Source: a virus. Taken from it: 64,000 nt of DNA. The stretch covers positions 1 through 64,000 of IMG/VR virus record IMGVR_UViG_3300026512_000010; one strand, given 5' to 3'. The stretch's first letter is position 1. Every line of letters starts with the position of its first letter. Positions 17,196 to 59,103 of the stretch are shown here, piece after piece. The notes beneath the pieces are model-generated. The model saw only the letters and a program-made list of their open reading frames with translations, was not told the DNA's origin and ran no database searches. Both the position numbers and the translations under genes were made by a program.

Positions 17196-18221
17196 TTATA
17201 TAATTTTAGTATATTCATAATTAATTTTCATAAATCCTTCAGTATATAAAGGAAGCTCAAATCTTTTGGCAAAATCAATTAAAACATTTTCTGGAATAAA
17301 TTTTCCATCAATTTTAGCTCTTTCTTTGTTTCTTTTTAAAATTTCATCTAAAGAAGTCATCATAACAATGGCTATTGCATTATGATTTTTAAGTTGAGAT
17401 AGCCATTTCTTTCTTGATTTCCAGCTAACATTTGTCATATCAATTACAAAATCTTTGTCTGAATTTTTAAGTCTATTAAATTTTTGTTGAAGAATTTTAT
17501 CAACTTCTTTTTGATCTTCAAAGGTTAAATTTTTCCAAATTTCAGAATATGTTTCACCATATCCTTTTTCTTTTCCGTATTCCAAAAGAATACCATCTCT
17601 ACTTAGAACTTCCAAATCTTTAAAATTTTCTTTTATATATGTTGATTTCCCAGAATTTGGAAGCCCTATCATAATATAACAATTATTATCTAATTCTGTG
17701 TTGCAAATTTTATTATGTCCATATTTTTCTTTTTCTTTATGAGTAAATCCTTTAAAAGAAATATTACCTTTAGCATCATATTCTGAGAATTCATAAAGCT
17801 TTTCATATAAATCATAATGTCCATTAATGAAATATTTTTTAATTTGTTTATCTGATTTTTGCCAGAATATCCCATGGTAGTTAATCACATAAAAAATTTC
17901 AAACGCATCAGACCAAGAAATAACATTTTCATATACTAAATTCATTAAAAAATCGATAGCCATTAAAGTAGAAATTCCTTCATGACCTCTAAATACAATT
18001 TTTCCATTTTCAAGCTCTTGTCTTGCGAGAGGTTTTCCAATATCATGAAGAAGTGCAGCAATTTGAATATTTTTTGAAGCATTGTTTAATCTTGCTTGAT
18101 TAAACACAAGCATAGTATGAGTCCAAACATCCCCTTCAAGATGATACGTTCCGTTTGGATGAGTAGCAAATTTTAATCCTTTTTCATAATTTTCTTTAAA
18201 AAGTTTAAATATTTTTTCCAT
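17196..18221 (-). CDS. Bifunctional HD-domain phosphohydrolase / polynucleotide 5'-kinase (RNA end-healing enzyme)
   Basis: N-terminal HD motifs (HLEGDVWTHTM, AALLHDIGKP, RGHEGIS); C-terminal P-loop MIGLPNSGKSTYIKE resembles the T4 Pnk kinase GCPGSGKST; sits next to Rnl1. Confidence 0.7.
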   Translation of the reverse strand: MEKIFKLFKENYEKGLKFATHPNGTYHLEGDVWTHTMLVFNQARLNNASKNIQIAALLHDIGKPLARQELENGKIVFRGHEGISTLMAIDFLMNLVYENVISWSDAFEIFYVINYHGIFWQKSDKQIKKYFINGHYDLYEKLYEFSEYDAKGNISFKGFTHKEKEKYGHNKICNTELDNNCYIMIGLPNSGKSTYIKENFKDLEVLSRDGILLEYGKEKGYGETYSEIWKNLTFEDQKEVDKILQQKFNRLKNSDKDFVIDMTNVSWKSRKKWLSQLKNHNAIAIVMMTSLDEILKRNKERAKIDGKFIPENVLIDFAKRFELPLYTEGFMKINYEYTKII

Positions 18222-18247
18222 TCTAACTCCTTTTAATTCACTTATCT

Positions 18248-18322
18248 GAGCCTCTCTAAGGAATAATCTTTTATTTTTAATATATAATTATTAAAATCAC
18301 TTAAAAGCTCTTAGAGAGGCTC
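18248..18322 (-). promoter_or_regulatory. Leader hairpin/operator element A (13-bp perfect inverted repeat GAGCCTCTCTAAG / CTTAGAGAGGCTC around a -10-like box)
   Basis: Arms at 18248-18260 and 18310-18322; the loop contains tatataattatt. Lies between promoter 18339-18387 and the HD-Pnk start. Homologous elements at 46787-46861 and 58970-59056. Confidence 0.5.
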
Positions 18323-18338
18323 TAATAAATAAACTATT

Positions 18339-18387
18339 TATAATATAATTATAATATAATTATAATATAATTTTTTGAAAAAGTAAA
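18339..18387 (-). promoter_or_regulatory. Conserved phage promoter with triple tandem 11-bp -10 repeat (tataatataat x3)
   Basis: Three perfect copies at 18339-18371 followed by tttttgaaaaagtaaa. Confidence 0.5.
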
Positions 18388-18490
18388 TAGTTTAAGAGAT
18401 ATTTTCCAAAAATTCTCTTGTTTTAAAAATTTTCATGCAATTTTAATAATGCTTATTTTGTAGTTTCAATCCCTTTTTATAATTGCTCTT

Positions 18491-19283: not shown

Positions 19284-20405
19284 TTATAGATTTTTTAAAA
19301 ATTCTCTTGCTTTTGACAATTTAAAAGTATCTTTTATAATTTTTTCTTTTAATAGTTTCTCTAAATCCTCTTTTTTATTTGCTTTCATTAAAACACTAAA
19401 ATAAGGATGCTCTTTATGTTTTAAAGCAAACTCTTTTCTTTCTGTTTGAAATTTTACTTTTAATAATTCATTCAATTCATTATACATTTTATCAAAATAG
19501 TGAGAAACTTTATTCCTTATTTCCTCAATTTTATTTCTTTTTTCTCCCTGCGGTAATTGTGATATTACATCATCTATTGTTTCATTTATAATATGTTCTA
19601 TTAATTTATTTTCAACCAAATTATCAGGACTAATTAAATGATGAAGTGTAAAATACCATTTAGTTTTCACCTTTCTAAATTGTCTTTCAAAATTTTCGAA
19701 TGGATTCATTACCACCCACCCTTCAATATCTGTAAATGTTTCTTGTCTTTCTCTTAATTCAGTTAAAGTTAAATATTCAACCTGTGTAATTGGTAGATCA
19801 TACACAAATGCTATATTTTTCACTTTATCATATTCTAAATATTCACCTGTAATAATTCTTCTTGCTTGAATTAATTTTAATTCTGTTTTTTCATATGGAA
19901 CAACAATTTGATTAAATGGGGATATTAATTCAAAAAATAAAAGTATTCCTTCTTTATAACAATTTCTAATTGCGTTTTGGTATTTTTCATTTTTATTAAT
20001 TATTTCTTGTGCCAATTTTGCTTGCTCAGAAAAAAATGTTCCTTTTGTTTTAGCAAGGAAGATTTCATTACCTTTTAGGTTTTCAATATAAATGGTTTGA
20101 ATTAAACTCCCATCTAATTTTTCTCTTGCTTCAAGTCTAGCATTTTCCCATTTTTCATCATTCATTGTAAATGGATTTTCATTATCATTAAAGAATTTGT
20201 GTAATCCTAAATAATAATCTTTTGTTTCTAAATTAATTGTTAAACCTCTTAATTCTAATGCAAAAGAATCTTTAGCAAAATCAGAATAAGAAGCCAACCT
20301 ATAATTAAAAATTCTAAATGGTGTTCCATCTACTACTTCATCTTTATAATAGAAAGCATCATTTTCTTTAACTATGTTCATTGCTCTTTCAAATAAATGA
20401 TTCAT
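19284..20405 (-). CDS. rnlA: RNA ligase 1 (T4 Rnl1/RnlA-like)
   Basis: [26 protein letters not shown] and NENPFTMN match T4 Rnl1 ([35 protein letters not shown] identical); KxDG motif [10 protein letters not shown]. Confidence 0.85.
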   Translation of the reverse strand: [373 protein letters not shown]

Positions 20406-20407
20406 TT

Positions 20408-20571
20408 TAAGCTCCTTGACACAATATATGTGTGCATATTAAAATTTCTATAAAAGCACAAAATGCTATTACACTTGATGTAAACCTAATAAATTCATCA
20501 TTATTATCTTTTAAAATTAATAATTGTAATATAAAAGTTAATATCCAAATTATTAAAAGAAATGTTGTCAT
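20408..20571 (-). CDS. Small (54 aa) membrane protein ORF not in the ORF track
   Basis: ATG at 20569-20571 downstream of a promoter-like cassette; hydrophobic MTTFLLIIWILTFILQLLIL...; its stop lies just before the rnlA RBS. Confidence 0.3.
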
Positions 20572-20592
20572 TTTAACTCCTTAACTTTTTTC

Positions 20593-20615
20593 TTATATAA
20601 TTATAACATAAAACA
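20593..20615 (-). promoter_or_regulatory. Promoter-like cassette (degenerate -35)
   Basis: cttatataattataacataaaac with the conserved downstream ctccttaac RBS context. Confidence 0.3.
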
Positions 20616-20617
20616 GG

Positions 20618-21163
20618 TTATTTATCAAGAGACTTTGTTAATTTTTCATACAACTCACAATCTTTTTTAAATTTTTCTAAATAATAATTTTCATAAATTT
20701 CAATTAATTTTAAAGACTCATTTCGCTGTTCAGGTGTAAGATCCAACATTTCCAACCTTGTAAAAAATGTATCTAACCAATTATAAAATTGCACACGCTG
20801 TTCTATATCTTCAAATGTTAAATTTTCATTTTTAATACAATATTCACCTGTTTTAGTTTTAATTTCATTTAAAAGATCAGTAATAATAAACCAAAAGAAA
20901 GAAATATTTATTCTTAAATCCTTAATTTCATCATAAAGCTCTTGAAAGATTCTACTGAATATCGTTTTAAATTGTTTTCTTTTTACATATTCTTTTGTCA
21001 ATTCTTGTATAAATTGTTTATATTCATTTGAATTTTTTAAATCAAAATAATCAGAAATATTTTTTAATTGAAAAACTTTCCCATTTAGAAGAATTTGTCC
21101 AATAGATGATTCATATTTAGTATTATCTACGGTGTTACTTATTTTTAATACTTCAAATTTCAT
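20618..21163 (-). CDS. Hypothetical protein
   Basis: ORF after promoter 21185-21220. Confidence 0.4.
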   Translation of the reverse strand: MKFEVLKISNTVDNTKYESSIGQILLNGKVFQLKNISDYFDLKNSNEYKQFIQELTKEYVKRKQFKTIFSRIFQELYDEIKDLRINISFFWFIITDLLNEIKTKTGEYCIKNENLTFEDIEQRVQFYNWLDTFFTRLEMLDLTPEQRNESLKLIEIYENYYLEKFKKDCELYEKLTKSLDK

Positions 21164-21184
21164 TGTAGCTCCTTAAATTTTCTT

Positions 21185-21220
21185 TTATATAATTATAATA
21201 TATTTTTAAGAAAAGTAAAG
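21185..21220 (-). promoter_or_regulatory. Conserved phage promoter cassette
   Basis: ttatataattataatatatttttaagaaaagtaaag. Confidence 0.5.
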
Positions 21221-21335
21221 AGCTTTCAAATAATTTTTTGAAAAAATTAAAGAATTTTTATATTATAAATATTTAGATATAATTTTATTAATACGTTTTT
21301 TATAAAAATTTTTATTACGTTTTTCCTATATGTTT

Positions 21336-21881
21336 TTAATAAAATTTATTCCTAAATTCTTCTAATTCTCTTACAAATTTTTTATCTGAGTTTATTTTTT
21401 GATAAATTACCGCATCTTTCCATTCATCATTGATTTGAATTTGGCAAAAGTCTAAAACAAAATATTCATTATTTTTATAATAGTGTTTGTAAATTTTTCC
21501 AATTTCAACATTTTTAAGAATAGGAAAAATAGTGTAATATTCTACATCTATTAAAATGGAATCACAATCTGTGTTCTTTTTATTAATAATTTTAATATCT
21601 AATACTTCTTGTTTTTTTAATTCAATAAATTTTTTTAAAAAATTTTTTACCTGAATATCAGGTGACTTTGTTGTAATTTTCAGTTGATAGAATTCTCTTA
21701 AATCATCATTTTTTGATAAAATATTAACAATATAATTTTTAAAAGTTCCATAGGTAACATTTAATAAAGGTTTTAATTCTTCCCAATCTTCAGATAAAGG
21801 TAATTCTGTTTCATCTTCTATAACCTCTAATAAAGCCTCTATTTCTTCTTGTGTTAAAATTTCTGGCATTACATTCTCCAT
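21336..21881 (-). CDS. Hypothetical acidic protein
   Basis: ORF. Confidence 0.4.
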   Translation of the reverse strand: MENVMPEILTQEEIEALLEVIEDETELPLSEDWEELKPLLNVTYGTFKNYIVNILSKNDDLREFYQLKITTKSPDIQVKNFLKKFIELKKQEVLDIKIINKKNTDCDSILIDVEYYTIFPILKNVEIGKIYKHYYKNNEYFVLDFCQIQINDEWKDAVIYQKINSDKKFVRELEEFRNKFY

Positions 21882-21952
21882 TTTATTTTATTATATGATA
21901 TAAAATCATTTTTCCATTTTTATCTTTAATTTTTGTCATTTAATATTTTTAG

Positions 21953-21984
21953 ATAATTATAATATATTTTTTAAGAAAGTAAAT
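21953..21984 (-). promoter_or_regulatory. Conserved phage promoter cassette
   Basis: ataattataatatattttttaagaaagtaaa. Confidence 0.45.
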
Positions 21985-22003
21985 AAAATAATTTTTATAG
22001 AAA

Positions 22004-22489
22004 TTAAAGAATTTTTATATTGCAGGTATTTTTAGCTACAATTCCATTAATATAGTTTATCATACAGAAATTTTTACTCCATTCAAAATGAGCACTTAAA
22101 TCTAAATCATCAATACAAACTATTTCATTATCATTTTCTAAAAGAATTTCCATAGCTAAAATCCTATCATTAAAGGGATCTTTACCTATAATGTTCATTT
22201 GTTGGATTACATCAAACCATTCTTTCATTAATCTATCATATGTATCTTTTTTAAGTGTTAAATCATCATTTATAATACAGCTCCAGCTACTTATAATAAA
22301 AACTTTATATCCATTTTCAGCACAAAATTTATCTATTTTGTTGCAATTTTCTACTAATTTTTTAAAAATTTCTCCCGGAGAGTTATTCGCCCATTTTCCA
22401 TCCACTTTCTTAGCATATTCTATAATACAATCATCAAAATCAAGACAGATAAGCTTTTCATTTTTTATGTTTTGAATTTCTTTTACCAT
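22004..22489 (-). CDS. Hypothetical protein, possible HAD-like (DFDDC)
   Basis: ICLDFDDCII near the N-terminus weakly resembles HAD motif I. Confidence 0.3.
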   Translation of the reverse strand: MVKEIQNIKNEKLICLDFDDCIIEYAKKVDGKWANNSPGEIFKKLVENCNKIDKFCAENGYKVFIISSWSCIINDDLTLKKDTYDRLMKEWFDVIQQMNIIGKDPFNDRILAMEILLENDNEIVCIDDLDLSAHFEWSKNFCMINYINGIVAKNTCNIKIL

Positions 22490-22518
22490 TACAAGCCTTT
22501 ATAAATTTTTTAATTATC

Positions 22519-23274
22519 TCATGTTTTTCTTTTTGTTATTTTATTCCATCTACAATTACTGCCTATTTCACCATTACTAAAAAGATATATAACATTCAGA
22601 TTTGGATTTGTTTTATTATAATCCCAAAACCAAATATAAGGAAATTTTTTAAGTGCCAAAGCATTATTTTTTAATGTTTCAACATACATAGGATATTTAT
22701 TTTCTACTTCATAAAATTCTATGCTTTCATCTATTAGAATAAAATATTGCAAAAATTTATAAAACCATTTTTTATTTTGTGTTTCATAAACTTCTGGGCG
22801 TATAGTTACTTCAAAATCAAACAATTCTGGTAATTCGTTTTTCCATTTATCAATAACCCAAAAATTATTTGACGTCATCACAAATGACAACCTTACTTTG
22901 TTTTTATAATTATATAATTTATCAATAGTTTCTTTATCTATATTTTCATCAATACTAAAAACAAATTTATCATATCCACTTTTAAAAGCTTTTTCTAATA
23001 CTTTTATATTTCTTGTATGCAATGTGATTTTAATATTTGGATTAAATTGTTTTGCGAGTTTTGATATTTCCCAAGTTTCTTTTATAAATGAAGGATCTGA
23101 AGTATCACCACTTATTGAAAGTAAATTTGTCATATCTGCAAAACATTCAATAAAAGCTTTCCATTTTGTTGAAAAATGTGGGTTTTTATTTTCTCTAATT
23201 TTATTCCCAACACAAAAATCACATTTAAAAGGACAATCCCCACCCGCAAGTATTGAAATATAATCAAATTTCAT
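22519..23274 (-). CDS. Radical SAM protein (Cx3Cx2C)
   Basis: GGDCPFKCDFCVGN cluster 12 residues from the N-terminus; NrdG is encoded separately at 30529..31020. Confidence 0.65.
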   Translation of the reverse strand: MKFDYISILAGGDCPFKCDFCVGNKIRENKNPHFSTKWKAFIECFADMTNLLSISGDTSDPSFIKETWEISKLAKQFNPNIKITLHTRNIKVLEKAFKSGYDKFVFSIDENIDKETIDKLYNYKNKVRLSFVMTSNNFWVIDKWKNELPELFDFEVTIRPEVYETQNKKWFYKFLQYFILIDESIEFYEVENKYPMYVETLKNNALALKKFPYIWFWDYNKTNPNLNVIYLFSNGEIGSNCRWNKITKRKT

Positions 23275-23294
23275 TTTAACTCCTTAACTTTTCT

Positions 23295-23329
23295 TTTATA
23301 ATTTTATAATAATTTTTGAAAAAAGTAAA
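23295..23329 (-). promoter_or_regulatory. Conserved phage promoter cassette
   Basis: tttataattttataataatttttgaaaaaagtaaa. Confidence 0.5.
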
Positions 23330-23346
23330 TTATAAAAGCTTTAATT

Positions 23347-23742
23347 TTAATTTCCCTTTAAAGCCTTTATAAATTTTTTAATTATCTCATATTTTTCTTT
23401 TTGTAATTCATTACAAATTAAACAAAAAAGTTTCCGTTGGTTTTTAACAAATTTTTCTTTATTACTGATATTACATTCAATCCAAACATATTCATAAATA
23501 TCTTCTATATTTTTAGAATTTTCATTTTCTAAGGCGTCATTTAAGTTGTGTTGATTTACCAAATAAAGTCCAATTAATTTGTTCTTTGTTTTTGTTTCAA
23601 AATACTTTTCTAAATAAAATTTATCAACTTTATATCCTGTTTCTTCAAAAAATTCTCTGATAGCTGTTTGTTCTTTTATTTCATTAATCTCTTGTTTGCC
23701 TTTAAAAAAATAAGCACTTTCCTTCTTTATTTTTATAAACAT
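23347..23742 (-). CDS. Nudix hydrolase, C-terminal portion (box at residues 14-36; N-terminal strands missing)
   Basis: Perfect Nudix box GKQEINEIKEQTAIREFFEETGY (G-x5-E-x7-REUxEExGU); stops immediately upstream of the ATG. Confidence 0.6.
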   Translation of the reverse strand: MFIKIKKESAYFFKGKQEINEIKEQTAIREFFEETGYKVDKFYLEKYFETKTKNKLIGLYLVNQHNLNDALENENSKNIEDIYEYVWIECNISNKEKFVKNQRKLFCLICNELQKEKYEIIKKFIKALKGN

Positions 23743-23793
23743 ATATTAAGATTTTATTTTTATAAAATTTATAAGGAACTATACCACACGCTT

Positions 23794-24099
23794 TTACCAT
23801 CTTGGTTTCATTCCTTTAAAGAAATTATCATTATCATATTCTAACATAATAATTGGATTATCATCTAATATCACTGTGTCATAGATCTCATTAATTCTTG
23901 CTCTTGTTTCTTTTGTATTTTGCACTATCAAGCAAGTCCTTGCATTTTCTTGAAGTTTAAATCCCAAAATTATTTCTAACGCTTTTTTATCTATTTCATA
24001 TGCTTCTATTCTATAATCATTAAAATTATACAAATGATATTTAGGAGGATAATCATCAGTATTTATTTCAACAACATTGAAAGTTCTTGATATTTTCAT
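23794..24099 (-). CDS. Possible N-terminal portion of the split Nudix gene
   Basis: Ends ...YDNDNFFKGMKPRW*, repeating the FFKG that precedes the Nudix box in the next ORF. Confidence 0.35.
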   Translation of the reverse strand: MKISRTFNVVEINTDDYPPKYHLYNFNDYRIEAYEIDKKALEIILGFKLQENARTCLIVQNTKETRARINEIYDTVILDDNPIIMLEYDNDNFFKGMKPRW

Positions 24100-24101
24100 T
24101 T

Positions 24102-24863
24102 TTAACTCCTATATTTAGATACAATTAAATCATATGTTACATAATCTTTTAGTGGCATAATAATATTTCTACTCCTAATGACTTCTCTCATATCCTCACC
24201 AACATAAATAGGAACTTGTTCTTTTTTAATATAAACACCAAATTTAAAAAAGTCTGAAATATCATTCCAATCTTTATTATATTTTTCTTTCACGTATTCG
24301 ATTTGCTCATTTGCTGTTTTAAACATAAGTTCTTTATGAGAAGCATATGCTCTTGCAAACATACTTTTACTATTTCTAATAGCATCTCTTTTTCTTTCTG
24401 CAATTACATCCACTAATTTTTCATCAGGAACAGAAAAAACTCGTGCATCAAACCAAGCACCATCAATTGGCTTCATAAAACTTTGACCAAATTGTAATGT
24501 AGCTAAACTTGCACTCAAAGAAGCAAGTTTCTGAACCCTTCCATTATAAGGGTGAGTATATCCTTTTTTATCTGGCTGAGCTGGAATTATAATTGTGATT
24601 TCATCACTTTGTGTATAACCAAACGTTGCTTGAAATTCATCGAAAATTTTTTCCATCGCTTTTACCATAGCAAATGAAAAATCATGATCGAAAGGTTTTT
24701 TGCAATATTTTTTCGACAATTTACTAAATTTGTGGCCATCAACTCTGATTACAATATGTTGATCTTTTGGAATATTGATTTCATATTGCTTTTCATATTG
24801 TTTAATTTTGTAAAGATGTTCTTTGTTCATGATTTGACCTTTTTCTATTTTGCATAAACACAA
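24102..24863 (-). CDS. Thg1-like protein (tRNA-His guanylyltransferase family, 3'-5' nucleotide polymerase)
   Basis: IVIRVDGHKFSKL, KKPFDHDF and FGYTQSDEITIIIP match the Thg1 signatures VVVRLDGRNFHRF, KPND and YGQSDEYSFVF. Confidence 0.75.
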   Translation of the reverse strand: MCLCKIEKGQIMNKEHLYKIKQYEKQYEINIPKDQHIVIRVDGHKFSKLSKKYCKKPFDHDFSFAMVKAMEKIFDEFQATFGYTQSDEITIIIPAQPDKKGYTHPYNGRVQKLASLSASLATLQFGQSFMKPIDGAWFDARVFSVPDEKLVDVIAERKRDAIRNSKSMFARAYASHKELMFKTANEQIEYVKEKYNKDWNDISDFFKFGVYIKKEQVPIYVGEDMREVIRSRNIIMPLKDYVTYDLIVSKYRS

Positions 24864-25165
24864 AATTCTTTAGATTCAACTATATCTTCAAGTTTAGAAA
24901 TAAAATCTAAATATTTTTCTGTTTCTATTTCTTCTATACTAATATGTTCCATTTCTTTTATACAAATTTCTGCGGAAGCAACAGTTGATATAAGCTCCTC
25001 ACCATTAATTATAATATTGAAATAAATTGTGTCTTTTTCTTTAAAAACACTTTCAATATATCCCATATTTTTATCATATTTGAAAATTAAATTTTTATAG
25101 ATATTTTCTAATTCTTTAAAACTAAAATCTTTAAAAGTTTTCATATTAACTCCTTTAACTTTCAT
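24845..25165 (-). CDS. Hypothetical protein
   Basis: ORF after promoter 25164-25201. Confidence 0.4.
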   Translation of the reverse strand: MKVKGVNMKTFKDFSFKELENIYKNLIFKYDKNMGYIESVFKEKDTIYFNIIINGEELISTVASAEICIKEMEHISIEEIETEKYLDFISKLEDIVESKEFCVYAK

Positions 25166-25201
25166 ATAAATAATTATATAATAATTTTTGAAAAAAGTAA
25201 A
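25164..25201 (-). promoter_or_regulatory. Conserved phage promoter cassette
   Basis: catataaataattatataataatttttgaaaaaagtaaa. Confidence 0.5.
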
Positions 25202-25270
25202 TGGCTCAAATTAAGTTTTTAAAAAATTTAATTAAAATAATAAATGATGTATAAACGCAGTATAATTTAT

Positions 25271-25294
25271 AGATTAATTTGTAGATTAATTTGT
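25271..25294. repeat. Tandem 12-bp direct repeat (agattaatttgt x2)
   Basis: Perfect copies at 25271-25282 and 25283-25294. Confidence 0.6.
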
Positions 25295-25308
25295 AAGTGA
25301 AGAAAGTT

Positions 25309-25346
25309 GAAGACTAAAAGATGGTTAAAGCACCTTTTAAAGAAAG
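25309..25346. terminator. Hairpin GAAGACT...AAGTCTT followed by T6 (terminator-like, reads as plus-strand intrinsic terminator; also A-run on the other side)
   Basis: gaagactaaaagatggttaaagcaccttttaaagaaagtctttttt. Confidence 0.3.
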
Positions 25347-25350
25347 TCTT

Positions 25351-25441
25351 TTTTAACTCTTATAAGATGGACGAAGACAAGCCAAAATATTTCCAATATA
25401 TAAATAAGGATGCCTTTTAGTCCATCTTATAAGAGTTAAAA
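25351..25441. terminator. Large hairpin: 22-bp perfect inverted repeat with 47-nt loop, downstream of gene 25509..27329
   Basis: ttttaactcttataagatggac (25351-25372) and gtccatcttataagagttaaaa (25420-25441). The loop GAAGAC...AAATAAGGATGCCTTTT is homologous to the loop of the 27659-27747 hairpin. Confidence 0.35.
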
Positions 25442-25508
25442 GAGGCGGAAGCAAAAACTGTAAATTAAATCATTGTATATATTAAGGATGCCTCTTTGCC
25501 TCTGAAAA

Positions 25509-27329
25509 TTAAGAGAAAAGTTTAAGTTGAATATCTTTTGTATACTCAACTTTTTCAAACTCTTCTGAATTAGAAAAATCTCCTAAGATTTTTAAGATAT
25601 CATCTGTTAAAATATCTTCCAATCTTAATCTTGCTTCATTGTAAGCTCTTATTACTTCCATAAAAAGAGTTTCATTTTCTGAAGCAATAGATCTTGGTGG
25701 CATTACAAAATTGTTGATATAAAATGTATCTTCAATTAATATACCTAATGTTTTATAAATATTGTTTTCATCTATAAAATCATTACATTTAAAAATAATT
25801 TCATCAGCCATTGTATTTTTTGGCAATTTATCATTTATTTCTTTATTACCAAACCAAAGAGTATAAGGAACTTTTATATTTTGTGGCGAATAATAATTAT
25901 TATTCAAAGCATAAATTGAATTTTTTGTATTTATAATTAAAAAGCTTTCTGCTGCACCATCTTTAGCATCAGTCATATCACCACTAAAAATTACACTAGC
26001 ATTTGACCAGTTTGAATTCCAGCCAATTTTTCTAAATTGATTTGTTAATGATAAATCTAAATCTATACTTCTTCTATCAACATTTTCCCAGTAAATACCT
26101 AAAAGATTAAATCCTGTTACTTTTGTTCCAAATGGAACATCATTGAGAAATTGTTTTCCAGATGTTGGTAAAGCATAATTAGAATATTTTTCAGCATCAA
26201 AAATAATTCTTTCTTCAGCAATTTTTCCAAGAAATTTCATTCTAATAAAATTTATTGTCATTTCTAAGAATGATTTATAATCGCCATTAAAATAAACTTC
26301 CTCATACCAAACTTTACCATTTCTTATAACATACATAGCACCATTGGTATTATTTTCCTGACAATAAGCCCTATATTTTAAAGCATTACCAAGTTTTACA
26401 ACATAAGATAAATCCATATGTGTGATTAATTTCATAAAATCATCATATGTCATGCTTCCGTTTTCTATCATTTCAGTGACTCTTAGGTATTTTGGAAACC
26501 CTTTAGGCTTATGATATTTTTTAGAAAGTTTAGAAATTCTATTTATAGTCCATCTTAATTTTCTATCAGATGTAGATGATTTAATTCCCATAAATACTTT
26601 TTTGTATCTATTAAACCCTTCAGCAAGTGGTATAAATCCATATTCTTCTATAAATTTTTTCAAATAATCTAAAAATTTATTTGAATTATATGCTAATCTT
26701 TGAATAGTTTCTTTATTTTTAATAAATAAAGAGTTATCTGTAATTTTATAATTAACATATCCAAAGAATTCATCAATATTGTTTGGTGTTTTTTCAAACT
26801 CATCAAAAAGCATATATCTTAACTCTTTAGAAGGAATTTCATTAAAATTAATTTTTAGATCATATTCTCTTATAAAATCTATGATAAAATTAATTTCATC
26901 AAGTGTCCACTGCCTTGTATTATAAATATCTTCCATAAATCTTTCAACAAATTCATCAAAAGACAAAGAATCAATTACAATTAATTCTTTTATAGCCTGA
27001 TTAAACTCAGGATTATCTAAAAATACATCTTCTCCTTGAAGTCCATACCCATAAGTTGTCATATAATGTAACACTTGTTTCAAGAAAATCTCAAATCTTG
27101 TAGAATTTGCTACTCTTTCAAATGTGCTAAATGTTTTAGCTGTTTTTGATCTTGTAATTTCTGTTCTTAAAACTTCTTTTGCTTCCATTAAATCTTTTAA
27201 AGTAAAGTGTTGGAAATTGCCTATCACAAAAGGTAAAAGTTCTTTTAATACACTAACATCAACTTTTTCATCTTTTCCTGTATAAACAAATTTATTATAT
27301 CTATTATAAGCAAATCTTTGTAAATTCAT
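25509..27329 (-). CDS. Large hypothetical protein (606 aa)
   Basis: Long ORF; no catalytic motif recognised. Confidence 0.45.
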   Translation of the reverse strand: MNLQRFAYNRYNKFVYTGKDEKVDVSVLKELLPFVIGNFQHFTLKDLMEAKEVLRTEITRSKTAKTFSTFERVANSTRFEIFLKQVLHYMTTYGYGLQGEDVFLDNPEFNQAIKELIVIDSLSFDEFVERFMEDIYNTRQWTLDEINFIIDFIREYDLKINFNEIPSKELRYMLFDEFEKTPNNIDEFFGYVNYKITDNSLFIKNKETIQRLAYNSNKFLDYLKKFIEEYGFIPLAEGFNRYKKVFMGIKSSTSDRKLRWTINRISKLSKKYHKPKGFPKYLRVTEMIENGSMTYDDFMKLITHMDLSYVVKLGNALKYRAYCQENNTNGAMYVIRNGKVWYEEVYFNGDYKSFLEMTINFIRMKFLGKIAEERIIFDAEKYSNYALPTSGKQFLNDVPFGTKVTGFNLLGIYWENVDRRSIDLDLSLTNQFRKIGWNSNWSNASVIFSGDMTDAKDGAAESFLIINTKNSIYALNNNYYSPQNIKVPYTLWFGNKEINDKLPKNTMADEIIFKCNDFIDENNIYKTLGILIEDTFYINNFVMPPRSIASENETLFMEVIRAYNEARLRLEDILTDDILKILGDFSNSEEFEKVEYTKDIQLKLFS

Positions 27330-27598: not shown

Positions 27599-27638
27599 CT
27601 TATAAGTAATTATAATATATTTTTTGAAAAAAGTAAAG
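27599..27638 (-). promoter_or_regulatory. Conserved phage promoter cassette
   Basis: cttataagtaattataatatattttttgaaaaaagtaaag. Confidence 0.5.
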
Positions 27639-27658: not shown

Positions 27659-27747
27659 TGAAATTTTATAAAAATAGATGAAGACTAAAAAAATACCCTA
27701 ATTTTATAAAATAAGGAAGTCTTTTTATCTATTTTTATAAAATTTCA
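27659..27747 (-). terminator. Long hairpin (21-bp perfect AT-rich stem, 47-nt loop with inner GAAGACT/AAGTCTT stem and T-run) immediately 3' of tRNA-Ser; putative terminator of tRNA cluster 1
   Basis: tgaaattttataaaaatagat (27659-27679) pairs with atctatttttataaaatttca (27727-27747). Confidence 0.35.
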
Positions 27748-27748
27748 A

Positions 27749-27833
27749 TGGCGGAGGGTGCAGGACTCGAACCTGCAAGTCTTTTCAGACCACGGATTAG
27801 CAATCCGCTCCCTTACCATTCGGACAACCCTCC
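27749..27833 (-). tRNA. tRNA-Ser (GCT), CCA encoded, long variable arm
   Basis: Reverse complement GGAGGGTTGTCCGAATGGTAAGGGAGCGGATTGCTAATCCGTGG...GGTTCGAGTCCTGCACCCTCCGCCA; anticodon loop TTGCTAA. Confidence 0.8.
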
Positions 27834-28006
27834 AAATTTAGAACACTATCCCGGGATAGTGTTCTGGGATATTTCACTTAAAATAATGAAGTGGCCAATT
27901 TCATTTATTTTTTAGTTACTATACCTCAGTGTCTATTTTGCTTCGCCAAACGACACCACCAAAAGCTCTTTAAATTTTTCTTAAAAAACTTAGAGAGTTT
28001 TTGTTT

Positions 28007-28093
28007 TGGTGCACAAGGTGGGACTCGAACCCACACGTCCTTGCAGACACTGAATTTTAAGTCCAGAGCGTCTACCAGTTCCGCCACTCGTGC
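28007..28093 (-). tRNA. tRNA-Leu (TAA)
   Basis: GCACGAGTGGCGGAACTGGTAGACGCTCTGGACTTAAAATTCAG...GGTTCGAGTCCCACCTTGTGCACCA; long variable arm. Confidence 0.8.
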
Positions 28094-28155
28094 AATGATC
28101 TACAGATAATCCTATAGAAGATACCTCTTTCTACACAATGGTAGATGAGCAATTT

Positions 28156-28230
28156 TGGCAAGGGATGATGGGATCGAACCACCAACATCGGTTTTGGAGA
28201 CCGACATTTTACCAATTAAACTAATCCCCT
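28156..28230 (-). tRNA. tRNA-Trp (CCA)
   Basis: anticodon loop CTCCAAA; T-arm GGTTCGATCC; 3' CCA. Confidence 0.75.
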
Positions 28231-28232
28231 AT

Positions 28233-28308
28233 GGTGATCAGGGTGGGGATCGAACCCACGACCACATGATTAAAAGTCATGTGCTCTACCGACTGAGCTA
28301 CCTGATCA
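28233..28308 (-). tRNA. tRNA-Lys (TTT)
   Basis: TGATCAGGTAGCTCAGTCGGTAGAGCACATGACTTTTAATCATG...GGGTTCGATCCCCACCCTGATCACCA. Confidence 0.8.
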
Positions 28309-28310
28309 TT

Positions 28311-28384
28311 TGGTTGCGGGGGCAGGACTCGAACCTGCGACCTTCGGGGTATGAGCCCGACAAACTACCACTGTTCCACCCCGC
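28311..28384 (-). tRNA. tRNA-Met (CAT)
   Basis: GCGGGGTGGAACAGTGGTAGTTTGTCGGGCTCATACCCCGAAG...GGTTCGAGTCCTGCCCCCGCAACCA. Confidence 0.75.
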
Positions 28385-28388
28385 ATTT

Positions 28389-28462
28389 TGGTATCCCCAA
28401 CGGGATTCGAACCCGTGTCAACTGATCGAAAATCAGTTATCCTAACCTCTAGACGATGGGGA
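28389..28462 (-). tRNA. tRNA-Glu (TTC)
   Basis: GTCCCCATCGTCTAGAGGTTAGGATAACTGATTTTCGATCAGT...GGGTTCGAATCCCGTTGGGGATACCA. Confidence 0.8.
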
Positions 28463-28463
28463 C

Positions 28464-28541
28464 ATGGTCTGGGTGGCAGGGCTCGAACCTGCGACCTCCT
28501 GGTCCCAAACCAGGCACTCTACCAAACTGAGCTACACCCAG
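28464..28541 (-). tRNA. tRNA-Pro (TGG)
   Basis: CTGGGTGTAGCTCAGTTTGGTAGAGTGCCTGGTTTGGGACCAGG...GGTTCGAGCCCTGCCACCCAGACCA. Confidence 0.8.
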
Positions 28542-28545
28542 ATGA

Positions 28546-28616
28546 TGCCGAGGGTAGGAATCGAACTACGACCATTAGATTTTCAATCTAACACTCTACC
28601 TCTGAGTTACCTCGGC
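28546..28616 (-). tRNA. tRNA-Phe (GAA), 3' CCA not encoded
   Basis: GCCGAGGTAACTCAGAGGTAGAGTGTTAGATTGAAAATCTAAT...AGTTCGATTCCTACCCTCGGCA followed by TCA rather than CCA. Confidence 0.7.
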
Positions 28617-28754
28617 AAGATCCAATTTTAAGGGAAATTGAAGCCCCTAACAAAATTCTTAAAAAGAACTTTATTAGAAGTTTTTATTAAAGGTGAAAAG
28701 TAAATAATATTAGATTAAAAGTCTAGTCATTTAGGAACTTTATTTACCTTTAAT

Positions 28755-28791
28755 ATTTATAATTATATTATAATTTCAATAAAAAGTAAAG
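28755..28791 (-). promoter_or_regulatory. Conserved phage promoter cassette driving tRNA sub-cluster 1 (Phe to Ser)
   Basis: atttataattatattataatttcaataaaaagtaaag. Confidence 0.5.
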
Positions 28792-28813
28792 TTTTTATTT
28801 AAAAATTTATTTT

Positions 28814-28888
28814 TGGCTCCCCCACCTGGATTCGAACCAGGGACATTCGGATTAACAGTCCGACGTTCTGCCACTGAACTATGAGGGA
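28814..28888 (-). tRNA. tRNA-Asn (GTT)
   Basis: TCCCTCATAGTTCAGTGGCAGAACGTCGGACTGTTAATCCGAA...CTGGTTCGAATCCAGGTGGGGGAGCCA. Confidence 0.8.
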
Positions 28889-28889
28889 T

Positions 28890-28964
28890 TGGTAGTCCCG
28901 AGAGGATTTGAACCTCTATTACCCGATTATCAGTCGAGCGTTCTAACCTATTGAACTACGGGAC
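28890..28964 (-). tRNA. tRNA-Ile (GAT)
   Basis: AGTCCCGTAGTTCAATAGGTTAGAACGCTCGACTGATAATCGGG...GGTTCAAATCCTCTCGGGACTACCA. Confidence 0.75.
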
Positions 28965-28965
28965 T

Positions 28966-29043
28966 ATGGAGCCAGGAGAGGGACTCGAACCCTCAACGAC
29001 CTGATTACAAGTCAGACATTCTAGCCAATTGAATTATCCTGGC
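28966..29043 (-). tRNA. tRNA-Thr (TGT)
   Basis: GCCAGGATAATTCAATTGGCTAGAATGTCTGACTTGTAATCAGG...GGGTTCGAGTCCCTCTCCTGGCTCCA. Confidence 0.8.
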
Positions 29044-29044
29044 A

Positions 29045-29121
29045 TGGCGGTGCGAACGGGACTCGAACCCGCAGCCTCTGGTGTGACAAACCAGCGTTCT
29101 AACCATTAGAACTACCGCACC
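29045..29121 (-). tRNA. tRNA-Asp (GTC)
   Basis: GGTGCGGTAGTTCTAATGGTTAGAACGCTGGTTTGTCACACCAG...GGGTTCGAGTCCCGTTCGCACCGCCA. Confidence 0.8.
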
Positions 29122-29143
29122 TTTATAAAATTATAATTATTAA

Positions 29144-29219
29144 TGGCTAGGGAGGTAGGACTCGAACCTACGGCCACCTGAGTCAAAGTCAGGTGTTCTA
29201 CCAACTGAACTACTCCCTA
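29144..29219 (-). tRNA. tRNA-Gln (TTG)
   Basis: TAGGGAGTAGTTCAGTTGGTAGAACACCTGACTTTGACTCAGG...AGGTTCGAGTCCTACCTCCCTAGCCA. Confidence 0.75.
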
Positions 29220-29220
29220 A

Positions 29221-29308
29221 TGGCAGAGGAGGTGGGATTCGAACCCACGGAAGTTTTACCTCCACTGGTTTTCAAGACCAGCACCTTAAACCACTCGGAC
29301 ACTCCTCT
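29221..29308 (-). tRNA. tRNA-Ser (TGA), long variable arm
   Basis: AGAGGAGTGTCCGAGTGGTTTAAGGTGCTGGTCTTGAAAACCAG...GGGTTCGAATCCCACCTCCTCTGCCA. Confidence 0.75.
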
Positions 29309-29316
29309 AAATTAAT

Positions 29317-29401
29317 GGTGGAGGCGGGTGGACTTGAACCACCAGTCCCAACGGGAACGGATTTACAGTCCGCACGGCTACCAATTACCGGTTACACCTC
29401 C
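29317..29401 (-). tRNA. tRNA-Tyr (GTA), long variable arm
   Basis: GGAGGTGTAACCGGTAATTGGTAGCCGTGCGGACTGTAAATCCGT...GGTTCAAGTCCACCCGCCTCCACCA. Confidence 0.8.
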
Positions 29402-29465
29402 ATAAAGGTGAGAGCTAATTTTTAAAAATCCAAACAATTTTTAACTTTAAGGAAGCTCTTTAACC

Positions 29466-29500
29466 TTATAATTATATTATAATTTTTAACAAAAGTAAAG
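29466..29500 (-). promoter_or_regulatory. Conserved phage promoter cassette driving tRNA sub-cluster 2 (Tyr to Asn)
   Basis: ttataattatattataatttttaacaaaagtaaag. Confidence 0.5.
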
Positions 29501-29526
29501 CATTTTATCTAAAATACTTAATAAAA

Positions 29527-29637
29527 TGGGAATGGAGATTTGAACTCCGGTCTCGCCCTCCATATTTTTATTGAGGTTTGGCTTCCTCTGGACTAACCAC
29601 CAATTTTTAAATTCTCCATTTTATTCAGGGTAATAAC
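29527..29637 (-). ncRNA. Aberrant tRNA-like / structured RNA element with its own promoter (T-arm-like GGAGTTCAAATCTCC, ends complementary, ends ...CCCA; no canonical cloverleaf found)
   Basis: Minus strand GGGTTATTACCCTGAATAAAATGGAGAATTTAAAAATTGGTGGTTAGTCCAGAGGAAGCCAAACCTCAATAAAAATATGGAGGGCGAGACCGGAGTTCAAATCTCCATTCCCA. 5' AATGGAGA(A)TTT pairs with 3' AAATCTCCATT. Confidence 0.25.
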
Positions 29638-29684
29638 CCTTATAAAAAATCTCATATTAAAATCTTTTATAAGTTTTATTATCT

Positions 29685-29719
29685 TTATAATTATATTATA
29701 ATTTTTAACAAAAGTAAAG
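29685..29719 (-). promoter_or_regulatory. Conserved phage promoter cassette upstream of the tRNA-like element
   Basis: tttataattatattataatttttaacaaaagtaaag. Confidence 0.5.
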
Positions 29720-29746
29720 TAATTTTTTTAAAAAAATTATAAATAG

Positions 29747-29823: not shown

Positions 29824-29825
29824 AA

Positions 29826-29978: not shown

Positions 29979-29979
29979 G

Positions 29980-30065: not shown

Positions 30066-30143
30066 AATTTATATTTATTATTTAATAAACAAATTTTCAA
30101 AAATCACCAAATTTAAGCTAAATTTAAGAAAAATTTTAAAAAT

Positions 30144-45517: not shown

Positions 45518-45811
45518 TTATTTTGAATTTTCTTTAAATTCTTTTATTTCTTTTATTAATTGAGTAAAGGAATTTTCTTTCTTTATAAATCCATAATAAA
45601 TTAATATAAAGTTAATATCTTCAAAAAATTCAAGCATTTTATCAATATTATTAAATATAACCATATAAGTTTCGTTTATAACTATCGTTAATGTTGTTTT
45701 ATCACACAATATAAAACATTTTGTTAAATCAATAACTGAATAATTAGTTTTATGTTTATCATAAAATATTATATCCGAATATTTACTTAAATCAAATAAA
45801 AGCGTTTTCAT
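45518..45811 (-). CDS. Hypothetical protein (position compatible with a clamp-loader small subunit; unverified)
   Basis: ORF immediately downstream of the gp44 homologue. Confidence 0.35.
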   Translation of the reverse strand: MKTLLFDLSKYSDIIFYDKHKTNYSVIDLTKCFILCDKTTLTIVINETYMVIFNNIDKMLEFFEDINFILIYYGFIKKENSFTQLIKEIKEFKENSK

Positions 45812-46758
45812 TATTTTATCTTTATATTTTCATTCATTAATCTTGTTAAAAAAGCCATAATAGGAATATATTTATTTTTAGCTCTTGAATTTTGATCGTA
45901 ATAATCTGCAAGAAGAATTATTGTTTTAGCTAAATCTTTTTCTTCTATCAAATCTTCCAAATTCTTCCACACATAAGTATAAAAAATGTCTGGAGCTACA
46001 ATATTATCTACAAGAGATTTAACTTTTGCAAAATCTTTATTTTTAACCTCTTTAAAAATTTCGATAAAATAATTTCCAGCGTTTAATTGCTCTTTTTCTA
46101 CAACAAGCTTTCCATCAAATACATTTTTTTGGATAAAAATTATCATTTCTCTTGTTGATGGATAGTATGTTTTAATAATTTCCAAAAGATCTTTTTTATT
46201 ATATTCAATGTTTTCATTTTCTAAAATAAATGTTAATCTTTCAAGTATCTGTTTTGCCAGCTCTTTTTTGTTGTTTTGATAAATCTCGTCTAAATTATAT
46301 ATCTCAAGTCTCTGAAGAAGAGGTTCAATTAATCTATCAGGATAATTTCCTGTAAATGTAAATCTTGCTGACTCATAAAAAGCCTCTACGTCTCCTCTTA
46401 GAAGTGCCTGAGCATTTGCTGTTAGATAATCTGCCTCATCTACTATAATAAGTCTAAAATTTCCCTGATTTGAAATTTTCCCTGCAAAATTAGATACTTT
46501 AAATCTAAATGTATCAACATTATTTTCTTTTGAACCATTTAGCCAAAGTGTTTCAGTATCTAAATCATTTTTTAAAGCTGTTGCAATAGAAGTTTTTCCG
46601 CTTCCAGGAATTGAGCCAAATAAGCCAATATTTGGTAAAGTTCCTTTTTCAACATACTCTTTAAACTTTTTCTTCATTTTTTCTGGAAAAATTAAATCAT
46701 CTATTGTTTGTGGTCTATATCTTTCAGCCCAAATACTTGAATCACCTATTTTATTCAA
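45811..46758 (-). CDS. Clamp-loader large subunit (T4 gp44 / RFC-like AAA+)
   Basis: WAERYRPQTIDDLIFP...LFGSIPGSGKTSIATAL...LIIVDEADYL parallels T4 gp44 LEQKYRPSTIDECILP...SPSPGTGKTTVAKAL. Confidence 0.85.
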   Translation of the reverse strand: MNKIGDSSIWAERYRPQTIDDLIFPEKMKKKFKEYVEKGTLPNIGLFGSIPGSGKTSIATALKNDLDTETLWLNGSKENNVDTFRFKVSNFAGKISNQGNFRLIIVDEADYLTANAQALLRGDVEAFYESARFTFTGNYPDRLIEPLLQRLEIYNLDEIYQNNKKELAKQILERLTFILENENIEYNKKDLLEIIKTYYPSTREMIIFIQKNVFDGKLVVEKEQLNAGNYFIEIFKEVKNKDFAKVKSLVDNIVAPDIFYTYVWKNLEDLIEEKDLAKTIILLADYYDQNSRAKNKYIPIMAFLTRLMNENIKIK

Positions 46759-46786
46759 TTTAAACTCCTTTGTAATTCGCTTATCC

Positions 46787-46861
46787 GAGCCTCTTTAAGA
46801 AGCTTTGAATGATTTTAATATAATAACTATTAAAATCCAAAATCTTCTAATAGAGAGGCTC
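46787..46861 (-). promoter_or_regulatory. Leader hairpin/operator element B (GAGCCTCT.. / ..AGAGGCTC inverted repeat around a -10-like box) in the gp44 leader
   Basis: gagcctctttaagaag (46787-46802) and cttctaatagagaggctc (46844-46861); loop contains taatataata. Confidence 0.5.
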
Positions 46862-46868
46862 TAATAAG

Positions 46869-46994
46869 TGAATTAATGTTACAACTTAATTGGCTAATGT
46901 TTTTAATGGGAACATTAATGATACAACTTAATTGGCTAATGTTTTTAATGGGAACATTAATGATACAACTTAATTGGCTAATGTTTTTAAAGGG
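46869..46994. repeat. Three tandem 42-bp direct repeats, each with an internal 7-bp inverted repeat (AACATTA...TAATGTT); a partial fourth copy follows
   Basis: aacattaatgatacaacttaattggctaatgtttttaatggg repeated at about 46869-46910, 46911-46952 and 46953-46994; lies between promoter 47005-47038 and hairpin B. Confidence 0.8.
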
Positions 46995-47004
46995 AACATT
47001 AACA

Positions 47005-47038
47005 ATATAATTATAATATAATTTTTCAAAAAAGTAAA
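47005..47038 (-). promoter_or_regulatory. Conserved phage promoter cassette upstream of the repeat array and gp44 leader
   Basis: atataattataatataatttttcaaaaaagtaaa. Confidence 0.5.
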
Positions 47039-58492: not shown

Positions 58493-58945
58493 CTATCCTT
58501 TTTTAAGATTTTTAAACCACTCTTGCTCCCAGAGTTGATTATATGAGATAGCCATATCTTCTCTATTTTGTCTTTCTTTTTTAAATTTTCTTATAATATC
58601 GTGTATAGATGAAATTGCCATAGTAGTAAAAAATCCATGAGCACCACCCCATTCTTTTTCTTCTTTTAAATATTTTTCATTATTTCTTTGAAAATAATTT
58701 TTCTGAGCTCTTTTTGGGTCAAATTTAAACCAGTGCTTTACGAACTTTTCATAAGCCAACCCTCTGAATTCATCTTTCCATTCAGGAGAATAACCCGAAT
58801 ATTTTCTTGAAGTTAATGTATGCTCTAAAACACTTAGATAAGAATTTGTTATTTCATCAGAAGGATTTTTTCTTTTTCCTTCAAGTCTTTCTTTGCTCTC
58901 TTTTATTAGCAATTTAGTAATTTCTAAATCATTAAAATACTCCAT
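58493..58945 (-). CDS. Late sigma factor (T4 gp55-like, sigma region 2 only)
   Basis: KYSGYSPEWKDEF...FDPKRAQKNYFQ...GAHGFFTTMAISSIHDIIRKFKKERQ parallels T4 gp55 FSGYTQSWKQEM...[30 protein letters not shown]. Confidence 0.7.
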   Translation of the reverse strand: MEYFNDLEITKLLIKESKERLEGKRKNPSDEITNSYLSVLEHTLTSRKYSGYSPEWKDEFRGLAYEKFVKHWFKFDPKRAQKNYFQRNNEKYLKEEKEWGGAHGFFTTMAISSIHDIIRKFKKERQNREDMAISYNQLWEQEWFKNLKKG

Positions 58946-58969
58946 ATTTTATCCTTCCCTTTATTCACC

Positions 58970-59056
58970 TATACAAGCCTCTCTAATAAAAGATCTTTTT
59001 ACTTTTATAATTATATATTAAAATAATAAATTAGCTCTTAGAGATGCTCTAATAAA
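58970..59056 (-). promoter_or_regulatory. Leader hairpin/operator element C (AGCCTCTCTAA / TTAGAGATGCT inverted repeat around a TATAAT-containing loop) in the gp55 leader
   Basis: agcctctctaa (58976-58986) and ttagagatgct (59038-59048); flanks ttcacctata / tctaataaatgag as in elements A and B. Confidence 0.45.
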
Positions 59057-59068
59057 TGAGTATACTTT

Positions 59069-59103
59069 TTATAATTATATTATATTTTTTCCAAAAAGTA
59101 AAG
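59069..59103 (-). promoter_or_regulatory. Conserved phage promoter cassette upstream of the gp55 leader element
   Basis: ttataattatattatattttttccaaaaagtaaag. Confidence 0.5.

Follow-up and report, generated by a model that had tools for sequence, protein, structure and literature searches.

Three genes in the 64-kb window analysed here (64,000 nucleotides, positions 1 to 64,000 of virus record IMGVR_UViG_3300026512_000010) carry copies of one long inverted repeat in their leaders, which raises the question of whether the repeat acts as DNA, on transcription, or as RNA, within the messages that contain it. A sequence-only reading of the window had described an architecture common to the three loci between the standard promoter and the start codon, and the sequence is as described. 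That reading proposed that paired operators or an activator box enclose a second, internal promoter, giving a circuit for the early-to-late switch, and kept a structured RNA leader as its fallback; it is the fallback that the evidence favours. The element fits best among the repeated leader hairpins of virulent phages that act in cis. It probably acts as RNA in cis, and by this analysis there is about an even chance that it is a double-stranded RNA (dsRNA) leader element serving as an RNase III-type processing site, a determinant of mRNA stability, or both.

Every ORF of any length and all 19 tRNAs in the window are encoded on the minus strand, so the three loci have to be read as the reverse complement. 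In the direction of the genes each consists of a standard promoter, a spacer, a long hairpin, a gap of 2-4 nt, a Shine-Dalgarno (SD) sequence and a start codon. The parts of the three loci, with covariance model (CM) scores for the hairpins, are as follows.

18359..18387, minus strand: promoter driving copy A, standard sigma-70-type, TTTACT-N17-TATAAT
18234..18336, minus strand: copy A, complete hairpin in the HD-Pnk leader (MFE -35.7 kcal/mol, z -5.4; CM 108.9 bits)
17196..18221, minus strand: gene behind copy A, HD domain plus polynucleotide kinase (HD-Pnk; phrog_6931, E 8e-66), with SD GGAG at 18227-18230 and ATG at 18219-18221
47010..47038, minus strand: promoter driving copy B, standard sigma-70-type
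46872..47002, minus strand: tandem repeat of 42 bp x3.1 (97% matches) between promoter and hairpin B
46773..46875, minus strand: copy B, whole hairpin of the gp44 (clamp loader) leader (MFE -39.7 kcal/mol, z -6.9; CM 109.9 bits)
45811..46758, minus strand: gene behind copy B, gp44-type clamp loader (phrog_168, E 5e-73), TTG start
59074..59102, minus strand: promoter driving copy C, standard sigma-70-type
58965..59059, minus strand: copy C, whole hairpin of the leader before the gp55-like gene, the most degenerate (MFE -24.6 kcal/mol, z -2.9; CM 95.1 bits)
58493..58945, minus strand: gene behind copy C, gp55-like late sigma factor (weak match to phrog_234, E 1.8e-7; R, the related phage, has an ortholog at 83% identity)

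The assignments to HD-Pnk, gp44 and gp55 made in the sequence-only reading hold up against these phrog matches, that of gp55 weakly. Its account of the arms was also correct in extent and position: the 13-nt core arms of copy A, GAGCCTCTCTAAG / CTTAGAGAGGCTC (18248-18260 / 18310-18322), match at 13 of 13 positions, and those of copies B (46787-46799 / 46849-46861) and C (58975-58987 / 59037-59049) are degenerate. The shared flanks ttcacYtatc and tctaataaRtg are present as reported, but they are not mere flanking sequence, since they form an inverted repeat whose mutual pairing lengthens the stem to ~27 bp (on the transcript, yUCAyUUAU pairs with AUAAGUGAA). The complete stem is made up of an outer helix of 9-12 bp, a U.G pair with a 1x1 purine mismatch (or a tandem G.U), and a G/C-containing core of 12-13 bp. 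Folding gives helices of 24-29 bp across all copies, closed by a top of 57-68 nt that is variable, rich in AT and folds into a weak apical hairpin. The whole element, with its imperfect terminal inverted arms of ~27 bp, measures about 105-125 bp.

A covariance model made from four copies and run over all 64 kb with filters off matches exactly copies A, B and C (95-110 bits, E 1e-16 to 1e-19), scores that put the three-copy family far beyond chance and confine the motif within the window to the loci first noticed; one further weak match, at 25346-25446, is an unrelated hairpin. The long lower helix recurs in the folds of all ten distinct copies that were aligned (z -2.9 to -8.6). In searches against Rfam only tRNAs pass the gathering threshold and the element has no family match, the best matches in E-value mode being plant and animal miRNA precursors (24 bits against a threshold of 56), which reflects generic hairpin similarity.

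Further copies were sought by pattern scans of IMG/VR and then with the covariance model. At least 10 more were found in contigs of the window phage (3300026512) and of a related phage, here called R (3300026382_000009, 109 kb, with near-identical contigs), whose gp44 and gp55 are 72% and 83% identical to those of the window. The 3300026512 contigs apparently belong to the same phage as the window, which matches them at intergenic repeats only. The family currently comprises about 11 distinct loci in two phages, and because the element is a repeat, contigs end inside its copies, which accounts for the breaks in the assemblies of these phages at such places. A second viral pattern scan returned the same contigs only. 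Among 51 loci from an exact-match pattern scan of bacterial genomes none was confirmed by the covariance model, and among the 80 metagenome loci listed by an exact-match pattern the confirmed copies lie only in contigs of the same three samples. The source samples are IMG 3300026382, 3300026484 and 3300026512 and ENA ERZ27262656. The window phage, which is uncultivated, branches deeply among T4-like phages; its DNA polymerase shares ~28% identity with the polymerases of Campylobacter phages and no more than about that with those of any cultured phage. A search for viral loci related to Pnk found none, and the Pnk gene has a DNA-level match of one 150-nt stretch only. Among cultured Campylobacter phages, the Pnk intergenic region of F352 is only ~60 nt long and conservation was not seen there, and gp55 has no tblastn match in the cultured phage collection.

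In all copies except three the helix ends 2-4 nt upstream of the SD and lies directly behind a standard promoter. The exceptions are an orphan copy in R, the R gp55 copy (~65 nt from its ribosome-binding site, RBS) and a helicase copy of the window phage (L011), whose start codon lies further downstream. Sequestration of the SD was rejected as a candidate function: SD and AUG lie outside the helix, at the 2-4 nt spacing for the SD, and their predicted accessibility (unpaired probability) does not rise consistently when the 5' arm is left out. An intrinsic terminator or attenuator was likewise rejected, as the element has no U-tract and a terminator-like hairpin occurs in the R gp55 copy only; no intrinsic-terminator-like site was found near the three window loci. 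In that single R copy (L190 2840-2862) the 5' arm and the next bases form the local hairpin GGCCUCUCUGAGAGGCUUUU (-10.2 kcal/mol), followed by UUUU. Four R-type copies (L009 7622-7731, L018 2988-3098, L015 4488-4601 and L008 2120-2229) have a 10-nt internal duplication, CCAGrGACCT before CCAGAGAGG, with which the 5' arm could pair instead, though less strongly (4 + 9 bp); this is possibly a co-transcriptional folding intermediate or a relic of slippage.

Evidence on the choice between RNA and DNA comes from the way the stem has changed. Over the 27 pairs modelled on the alignment of the ten distinct copies, pairing holds in 88.9% of cells; in controls in which the partner was slid it holds in 36-48%. 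Both sides have changed jointly, from AAG/CTT to GG/CC in one place, among UA, CG and UG at columns 10/114, and from A-U to G-C at columns 20/104 in the R gp55 copy. The U.G wobble at the junction is kept in eight of ten copies, and in R the adjacent mismatch becomes a G.U, giving a tandem G.U and a continuous helix of 24-28 bp. On the transcribed strand G.U cells outnumber A.C cells by 32 to 5; these cell counts overstate the excess because the copies are related, and by independent columns the figures are 11 against 5 (p = 0.21), not significant alone. Copy B folds slightly better on the opposite strand. The stem is kept G/C-rich in a genome of 23% GC. The compensatory changes, the conserved U.G and the G.U excess suggest, in this comparison of sequences, that pairing is selected in the transcript. 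A stem that stays paired by way of compensatory and G.U changes is more indicative of RNA than of two DNA operator half-sites.

The loop behaves differently from the stem, being poorly conserved. Alignments of the loops by themselves give two orientation classes, one with copy A and its twin, copy C and the R gp55 copy, the other with copy B, the nrdB and helicase copies and R1-R4; the differences between reverse and forward loop scores are matched by at most five of 500 shuffles. The Pnk copies of the two phages fall in opposite classes and their gp55 copies in the same class, while near-identical contigs from different samples have the loop in the same orientation. Flipping of the loop by recombination between the element's own inverted arms is the simplest cause. 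A directional promoter would not tolerate a loop found in both orientations relative to transcription, and the contents of the loops do not suggest one. The TATAAT-like boxes on which the sequence-only reading built are present but stand on the plus strand, antisense to the genes; such boxes are expected by chance because the loop is 23% GC. Inside the three window loops no promoter match was found in the gene direction, only antisense matches in copies B and C, and the phage consensus TTTACT-N17-TATAAT is absent from the loops. The motif TATAAATA does not occur in the three hairpins, though the phage's own late motif may differ and there are no late genes in the window; the single nearby match, at 18335-18342, straddles the outer 5' edge of copy A. 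A conserved loop motif, TATTARAATMAT, is not enriched elsewhere and forms the 3' strand of the apical stem. With no promoter match, no enrichment of TATTARAATMAT, no TATAAATA and a flipped loop, the internal promoter or operator pair was rejected, and the same findings, with the preserved pairing, leave the proposal of an operator pair or activator box around it unsupported.

The hairpin belongs to a larger pattern of repeated leaders. The window has ~28 standard sigma-70-type promoters (TTTACT-N17-TATAAT), of which three carry the hairpin and about 25 do not; no rule for the selection of these three emerged. Their repeated core can be written TTTACTTTT-N-TATAAT, and at the three loci it reads TTTACTTTTT-N-TATAAT. 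Nearly all are followed by a short conserved leader of roughly 28 nt, TAyTTATAAGAAAAGTTAAGGAGTTAAAATG. The 3' outer arm ATAAGTGAA overlaps ATAAGAAAA of this short leader, so that leaders with the hairpin are variants of the standard cassette and not arbitrary insertions. The recurrent cassette, as seen at 4114-4142, 6319-6346, 25173-25201, 27609-27637, 38563-38591 and 42887-42915, comprises an upstream CTTAAATTTTCCTTAAAC-like motif, TTTACTTTTTTCAAAAA-N-TATAAT and a leader with the palindrome CTTATAAG; it resembles the PeSL cassettes of T4-type phages in behaviour and has no upstream stem-loop. Individual cassettes have repeats of their own. The -10 region of the copy A promoter is triplicated (11-bp unit TTATAATATAA x3.2, 18338-18372) and its twin on contig L002 has a single -10, while the 42-bp tandem repeat is found at copy B only among the family copies. 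The unit of the latter holds a small inverted repeat, TAATGTT...AACATTA, and could be iteron-like or a further structure of the gp44 leader.

The genes behind the element are mixed. On other contigs of the window phage, copies precede a nucleotidyltransferase in an RNA-repair cluster, a helicase and a 161-aa ORFan; in R they precede Pnk, gp55, a 605-aa protein of unknown function and two small ORFans, and the orphan R copy comes right after a stop codon and before the next promoter, with no RBS or gene behind it. Copy A and the L002 copy are 100% identical throughout the hairpin and up to the ATG in front of different genes, with a few promoter differences just upstream (window 18213-18404 against L002 5513-5693, HD-Pnk against nucleotidyltransferase), so that two RNA-repair genes share one freshly copied leader. 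The L002 nucleotidyltransferase cluster also contains an Rnl2-like ligase, a 2H phosphoesterase and a CCA-adding enzyme. Two copies from one genome resemble each other more than copies at orthologous sites of the two phages do.

Comparison of the two phages shows the element coming and going with its surroundings. An orthologous copy lies upstream of gp55 in R, while R gp44 has neither element nor promoter upstream; the standard leader at window 42858-42915 is empty and its R counterpart is filled; and the orphan R copy (R3) corresponds to a window-phage copy after nrdB. A 2.4-kb module of five ORFs, present there in one phage only, adjoins copy D and is absent at R3. Boundaries of insertions and deletions between the phages coincide with the element, and the gp44 cassette is present in the window phage only. 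Separately, ~6 kb of genes at window 19285-25509, including a homolog of RNA ligase / tail-fibre attachment protein (19284-20405), are absent at the syntenic position in R, and the segment looks like a hyperplastic region bounded by cassettes. The heterogeneous downstream genes and the synteny indicate that the family is not tied to late-transcription genes and behaves as an optional module of the cassette. Positional conservation of the gp55 and Pnk copies between the two phages speaks for the earlier reading, but its early-to-late circuit does not fit copies that precede unrelated genes, one that precedes none, and an R gp44 lacking both element and promoter. Specificity for the late switch was rejected as a candidate in view of the mixed gene list and the R gp44 gene without element.

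Long hairpins with AT-rich tops are not limited to this family. Three others, one in an R leader and two at 3' ends in the window, have similar tops and helices of at least 21 bp but are unrelated to it in sequence.

L004 2085-2162 (IMGVR_UViG_3300026382_000009): hairpin in an R leader, helix 21 bp
25348-25444: unrelated long hairpin behind a 606-aa gene, on its 3' side (22+6 bp, -38.4 kcal/mol, z -6.2)
27659-27747: AT-rich hairpin (21+ bp, z -6.6) directly behind the 3' end of the last tRNA, shortly ahead of the next promoter

The R leader belongs to a 130-aa ORF upstream of gp44 and holds, at L004 2023-2162, two hairpins unrelated to the family (helices of 12 and 21 bp; -50.4 kcal/mol in total, z -6.7). 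In this place a module of promoter, hairpins and two ORFs in R replaces the module of promoter, repeats and element in the window. The hairpin at 25348-25444 lies within a non-coding region of ~340 nt (25166-25508), which also has a 12-nt x2.8 repeat at 25263-25295; Rfam gives no match for the region, and none like it was found in R at the syntenic position. The hairpin at 27659-27747, beside the array of 19 tRNAs (27752-30218), is a candidate 3' processing or end structure of the tRNA transcript.

Several other explanations fit parts of this evidence. A MITE-like or recombination-prone DNA inverted repeat with no dedicated RNA function, its hairpin a by-product, would match the size of about 105-125 bp, the conserved inverted arms around a variable AT-rich interior, the multiple copies in both phages that are more alike within a genome than at orthologous sites, the central segment found in both orientations, the orphan copy with no gene downstream, and the filled and empty orthologous sites. 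Even so it is unlikely, because no target-site duplication is definable at the one filled/empty pair, where the whole cassette differs, and because every copy but the orphan lies at one and the same place within the standard leader. The bacterial genomes scanned gave no copies, those among the metagenome loci listed come only from the same three samples, no transposase partner is known, and selection for pairing in the transcript is indicated by the G.U excess, the conserved U.G and the compensatory changes, with the stem held G/C-rich in a 23% GC genome. A different question is put by the 8-10 bp core GCCTCTCT/AGAGAGGC, almost invariant in both phages, which could reflect sequence-specific recognition and not a generic dsRNA function. 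A protein might bind the GCCUCUCU/AGAGAGGC helix with its U.G/mismatch junction and co-regulate the translation or stability of gp55, Pnk, gp44, helicase and other genes, much as T4 has protein-RNA operators for gp32, gp43 and RegA (PMC3014915). The core is near-invariant though gp44 is only 72% identical and the loops have fully diverged, the junction irregularity is conserved, and the helix abuts the SD at a fixed spacing. Such an operator is nevertheless quite unlikely: no protein emerged as a candidate binder, the genes behind the element are a mixed set that is not the same in the two phages, and recent copying or gene conversion, with double mutations being rare, may account for the invariance. 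Hairpins of unrelated sequence but like geometry occupy equivalent positions, which argues that geometry rather than sequence matters. It is improbable, too, that the hairpin is the operator of a phage regulon, in which a dsRNA-binding factor (a dedicated one of the phage, or one hijacked from the host) would read the GCCUCUCU/AGAGAGGC helix and U.G junction and jointly govern when the messages of a movable set appear or how long they last; gp55 and Pnk would then be the conserved members, and new genes would join when recombination swapped in a hairpin-bearing cassette. Still bolder is a variant in which the flippable loop is a miniature inverton.

An internal promoter in the hairpin, giving transcripts without the 5' arm as at T4 e, soc, 49 and I-TevI, or an invertible mini-promoter switch that times the late-transcription genes, has a documented precedent in T4 (PMC3014915). 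The AT-rich loops have -10-like hexamers, the gp55 copies of both phages share one loop orientation class, and both orientations exist, as in invertons. Against these points stand an SD and AUG outside the helix with accessibility that does not consistently rise without the 5' arm, three window loops in which promoter matches are antisense only and neither the phage consensus nor TATAAATA occurs, a conserved loop motif that is not enriched and is explained by the apical stem, Pnk copies with opposite loops in the two phages, and R gp44 without the element; a promoter of this sort is very unlikely. A hairpin that binds the elongating RNA polymerase in cis and allows read-through of downstream terminators would suit the slot immediately behind the promoter, which resembles that of HK022 put, and the long same-strand gene arrays with many internal promoters. 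The family has a single long helix with a variable top, however, and not the two-stem architecture of put; it has no Rfam match, one copy is not behind a promoter, and no intrinsic-terminator-like sites were found near the three loci, so that a put-like antitermination RNA is most improbable.

Among known systems, the closest to a processed or stabilised leader are the repeated, mutually similar RNase III hairpins in the early mRNAs of T7/T3 and SP82. For the Bacillus phage SP82, RNase III processing hairpins in early mRNAs were reportedly described by Panganiban and Whiteley (1983), a reference cited in PMC4838370. As with the T7 and SP82 sites, several similar long hairpins lie in transcribed leader or intergenic regions of early genes of a virulent phage, with a helix of about two turns or more, an internal irregularity, no terminator character, and positions both 5' and 3' of genes. 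Unlike the T7 sites, the element has a longer and more regular helix and a large variable AT-rich top, and its cleavage is predicted; it shares no sequence similarity with the T7 and SP82 sites and no Rfam family. In T4-type phages, PeSL cassettes consist of a short G/C-rich terminator stem-loop upstream of an early promoter (PMC2839356, PMC4122927). They have in common with the present family a highly repeated sigma-70-type early promoter accompanied by a stem-loop, borders that coincide with insertions and deletions of modules, and homogenisation within a genome. The hairpin described here differs in being ~100 nt long, in lying downstream of the promoter within the leader and in having no U-tract, and the standard cassettes have no upstream stem-loop; the element is therefore not a PeSL in the strict sense, and cassette-like recombination is what the two share. 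The leaders of T4 e, soc, 49 and I-TevI contain hairpins with an internal late promoter (PMC3014915). They resemble the element in being leader hairpins of a T4-type phage, but in the element SD and AUG lie outside the helix, there is no internal late or standard promoter, and the loop orientation is not fixed. With SD and AUG outside the helix and a predicted accessibility that does not vary consistently with the 5' arm, the T4 e/soc/49-type arrangement is ruled out as far as computation can do so.

Outside phages, the Correia/NEMIS MITEs of Neisseria are intergenic elements of ~100-150 bp with ~26-bp inverted arms that are co-transcribed with genes and form long RNA hairpins cut by RNase III. 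Size, inverted arms and a predicted long RNA hairpin are common to both, but no TA target duplication or transposase link was found for the phage element, which has one slot in the leader cassette and no copies in the bacterial genomes scanned. Stem-loops at the 5' terminus act as stabilisers in the E. coli ompA leader and as B. subtilis/SP82 5' stabilisers. In R the helix similarly lies ahead of the SD and starts only a few nt from where transcription is predicted to begin. In the window phage, by contrast, promoter and hairpin are about 7 to about 150 nt apart, a poor fit to a strictly 5'-terminal stabiliser, and the helix is far longer than 5' protection needs.

The reading preferred here remains a cis-acting dsRNA leader. 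The sequences show the structure and its conservation, where the copies lie, their setting in the cassette and the flipping of the loop, and from these features we infer the RNA action, especially the RNase III or stability mechanism. Transcription from the standard early (sigma-70-type) promoter would yield a near-continuous double-stranded helix of ~24-29 bp in the 5' leader. Most likely the helix and not the loop is the functional part, and its action is post-transcriptional. The sequence-unrelated hairpins of similar build, and a loop that is poorly conserved and found both ways round, speak for the helix. A host RNase III-type nuclease may cut the helix, parting the message from upstream RNA and leaving a new, short 5' end, or the helix may serve as a terminal stem that controls the lifetime of the mRNA; in both cases the helix would determine how strongly the downstream gene is expressed. 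Long dsRNA hairpins at 5' and 3' positions in early transcripts, as in T7 and SP82, favour an RNase III-type site. Host RNase III is assumed in this scheme, and in the phage sequence examined the RNase III signature E[FYW][LVI]GD occurs in no ORF of at least 80 aa. The element itself would travel in the repeated promoter-leader cassette, being spread and homogenised among leaders by homologous recombination, and recombination between its inverted arms would flip the loop.

If this reading is true, a deep-branching T4-like lineage tunes a subset of its early genes, the late sigma factor included, by long dsRNA leader hairpins, in a manner closer to the use of RNase III sites by T7 and SP82 than to the classic T4 strategy. 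A post-transcriptional signal would then move as an optional module of a recombining promoter-leader cassette, which would extend the PeSL idea from promoters and terminators to elements of the 5' UTR. The family is a well-defined candidate for a new cis-regulatory RNA family.
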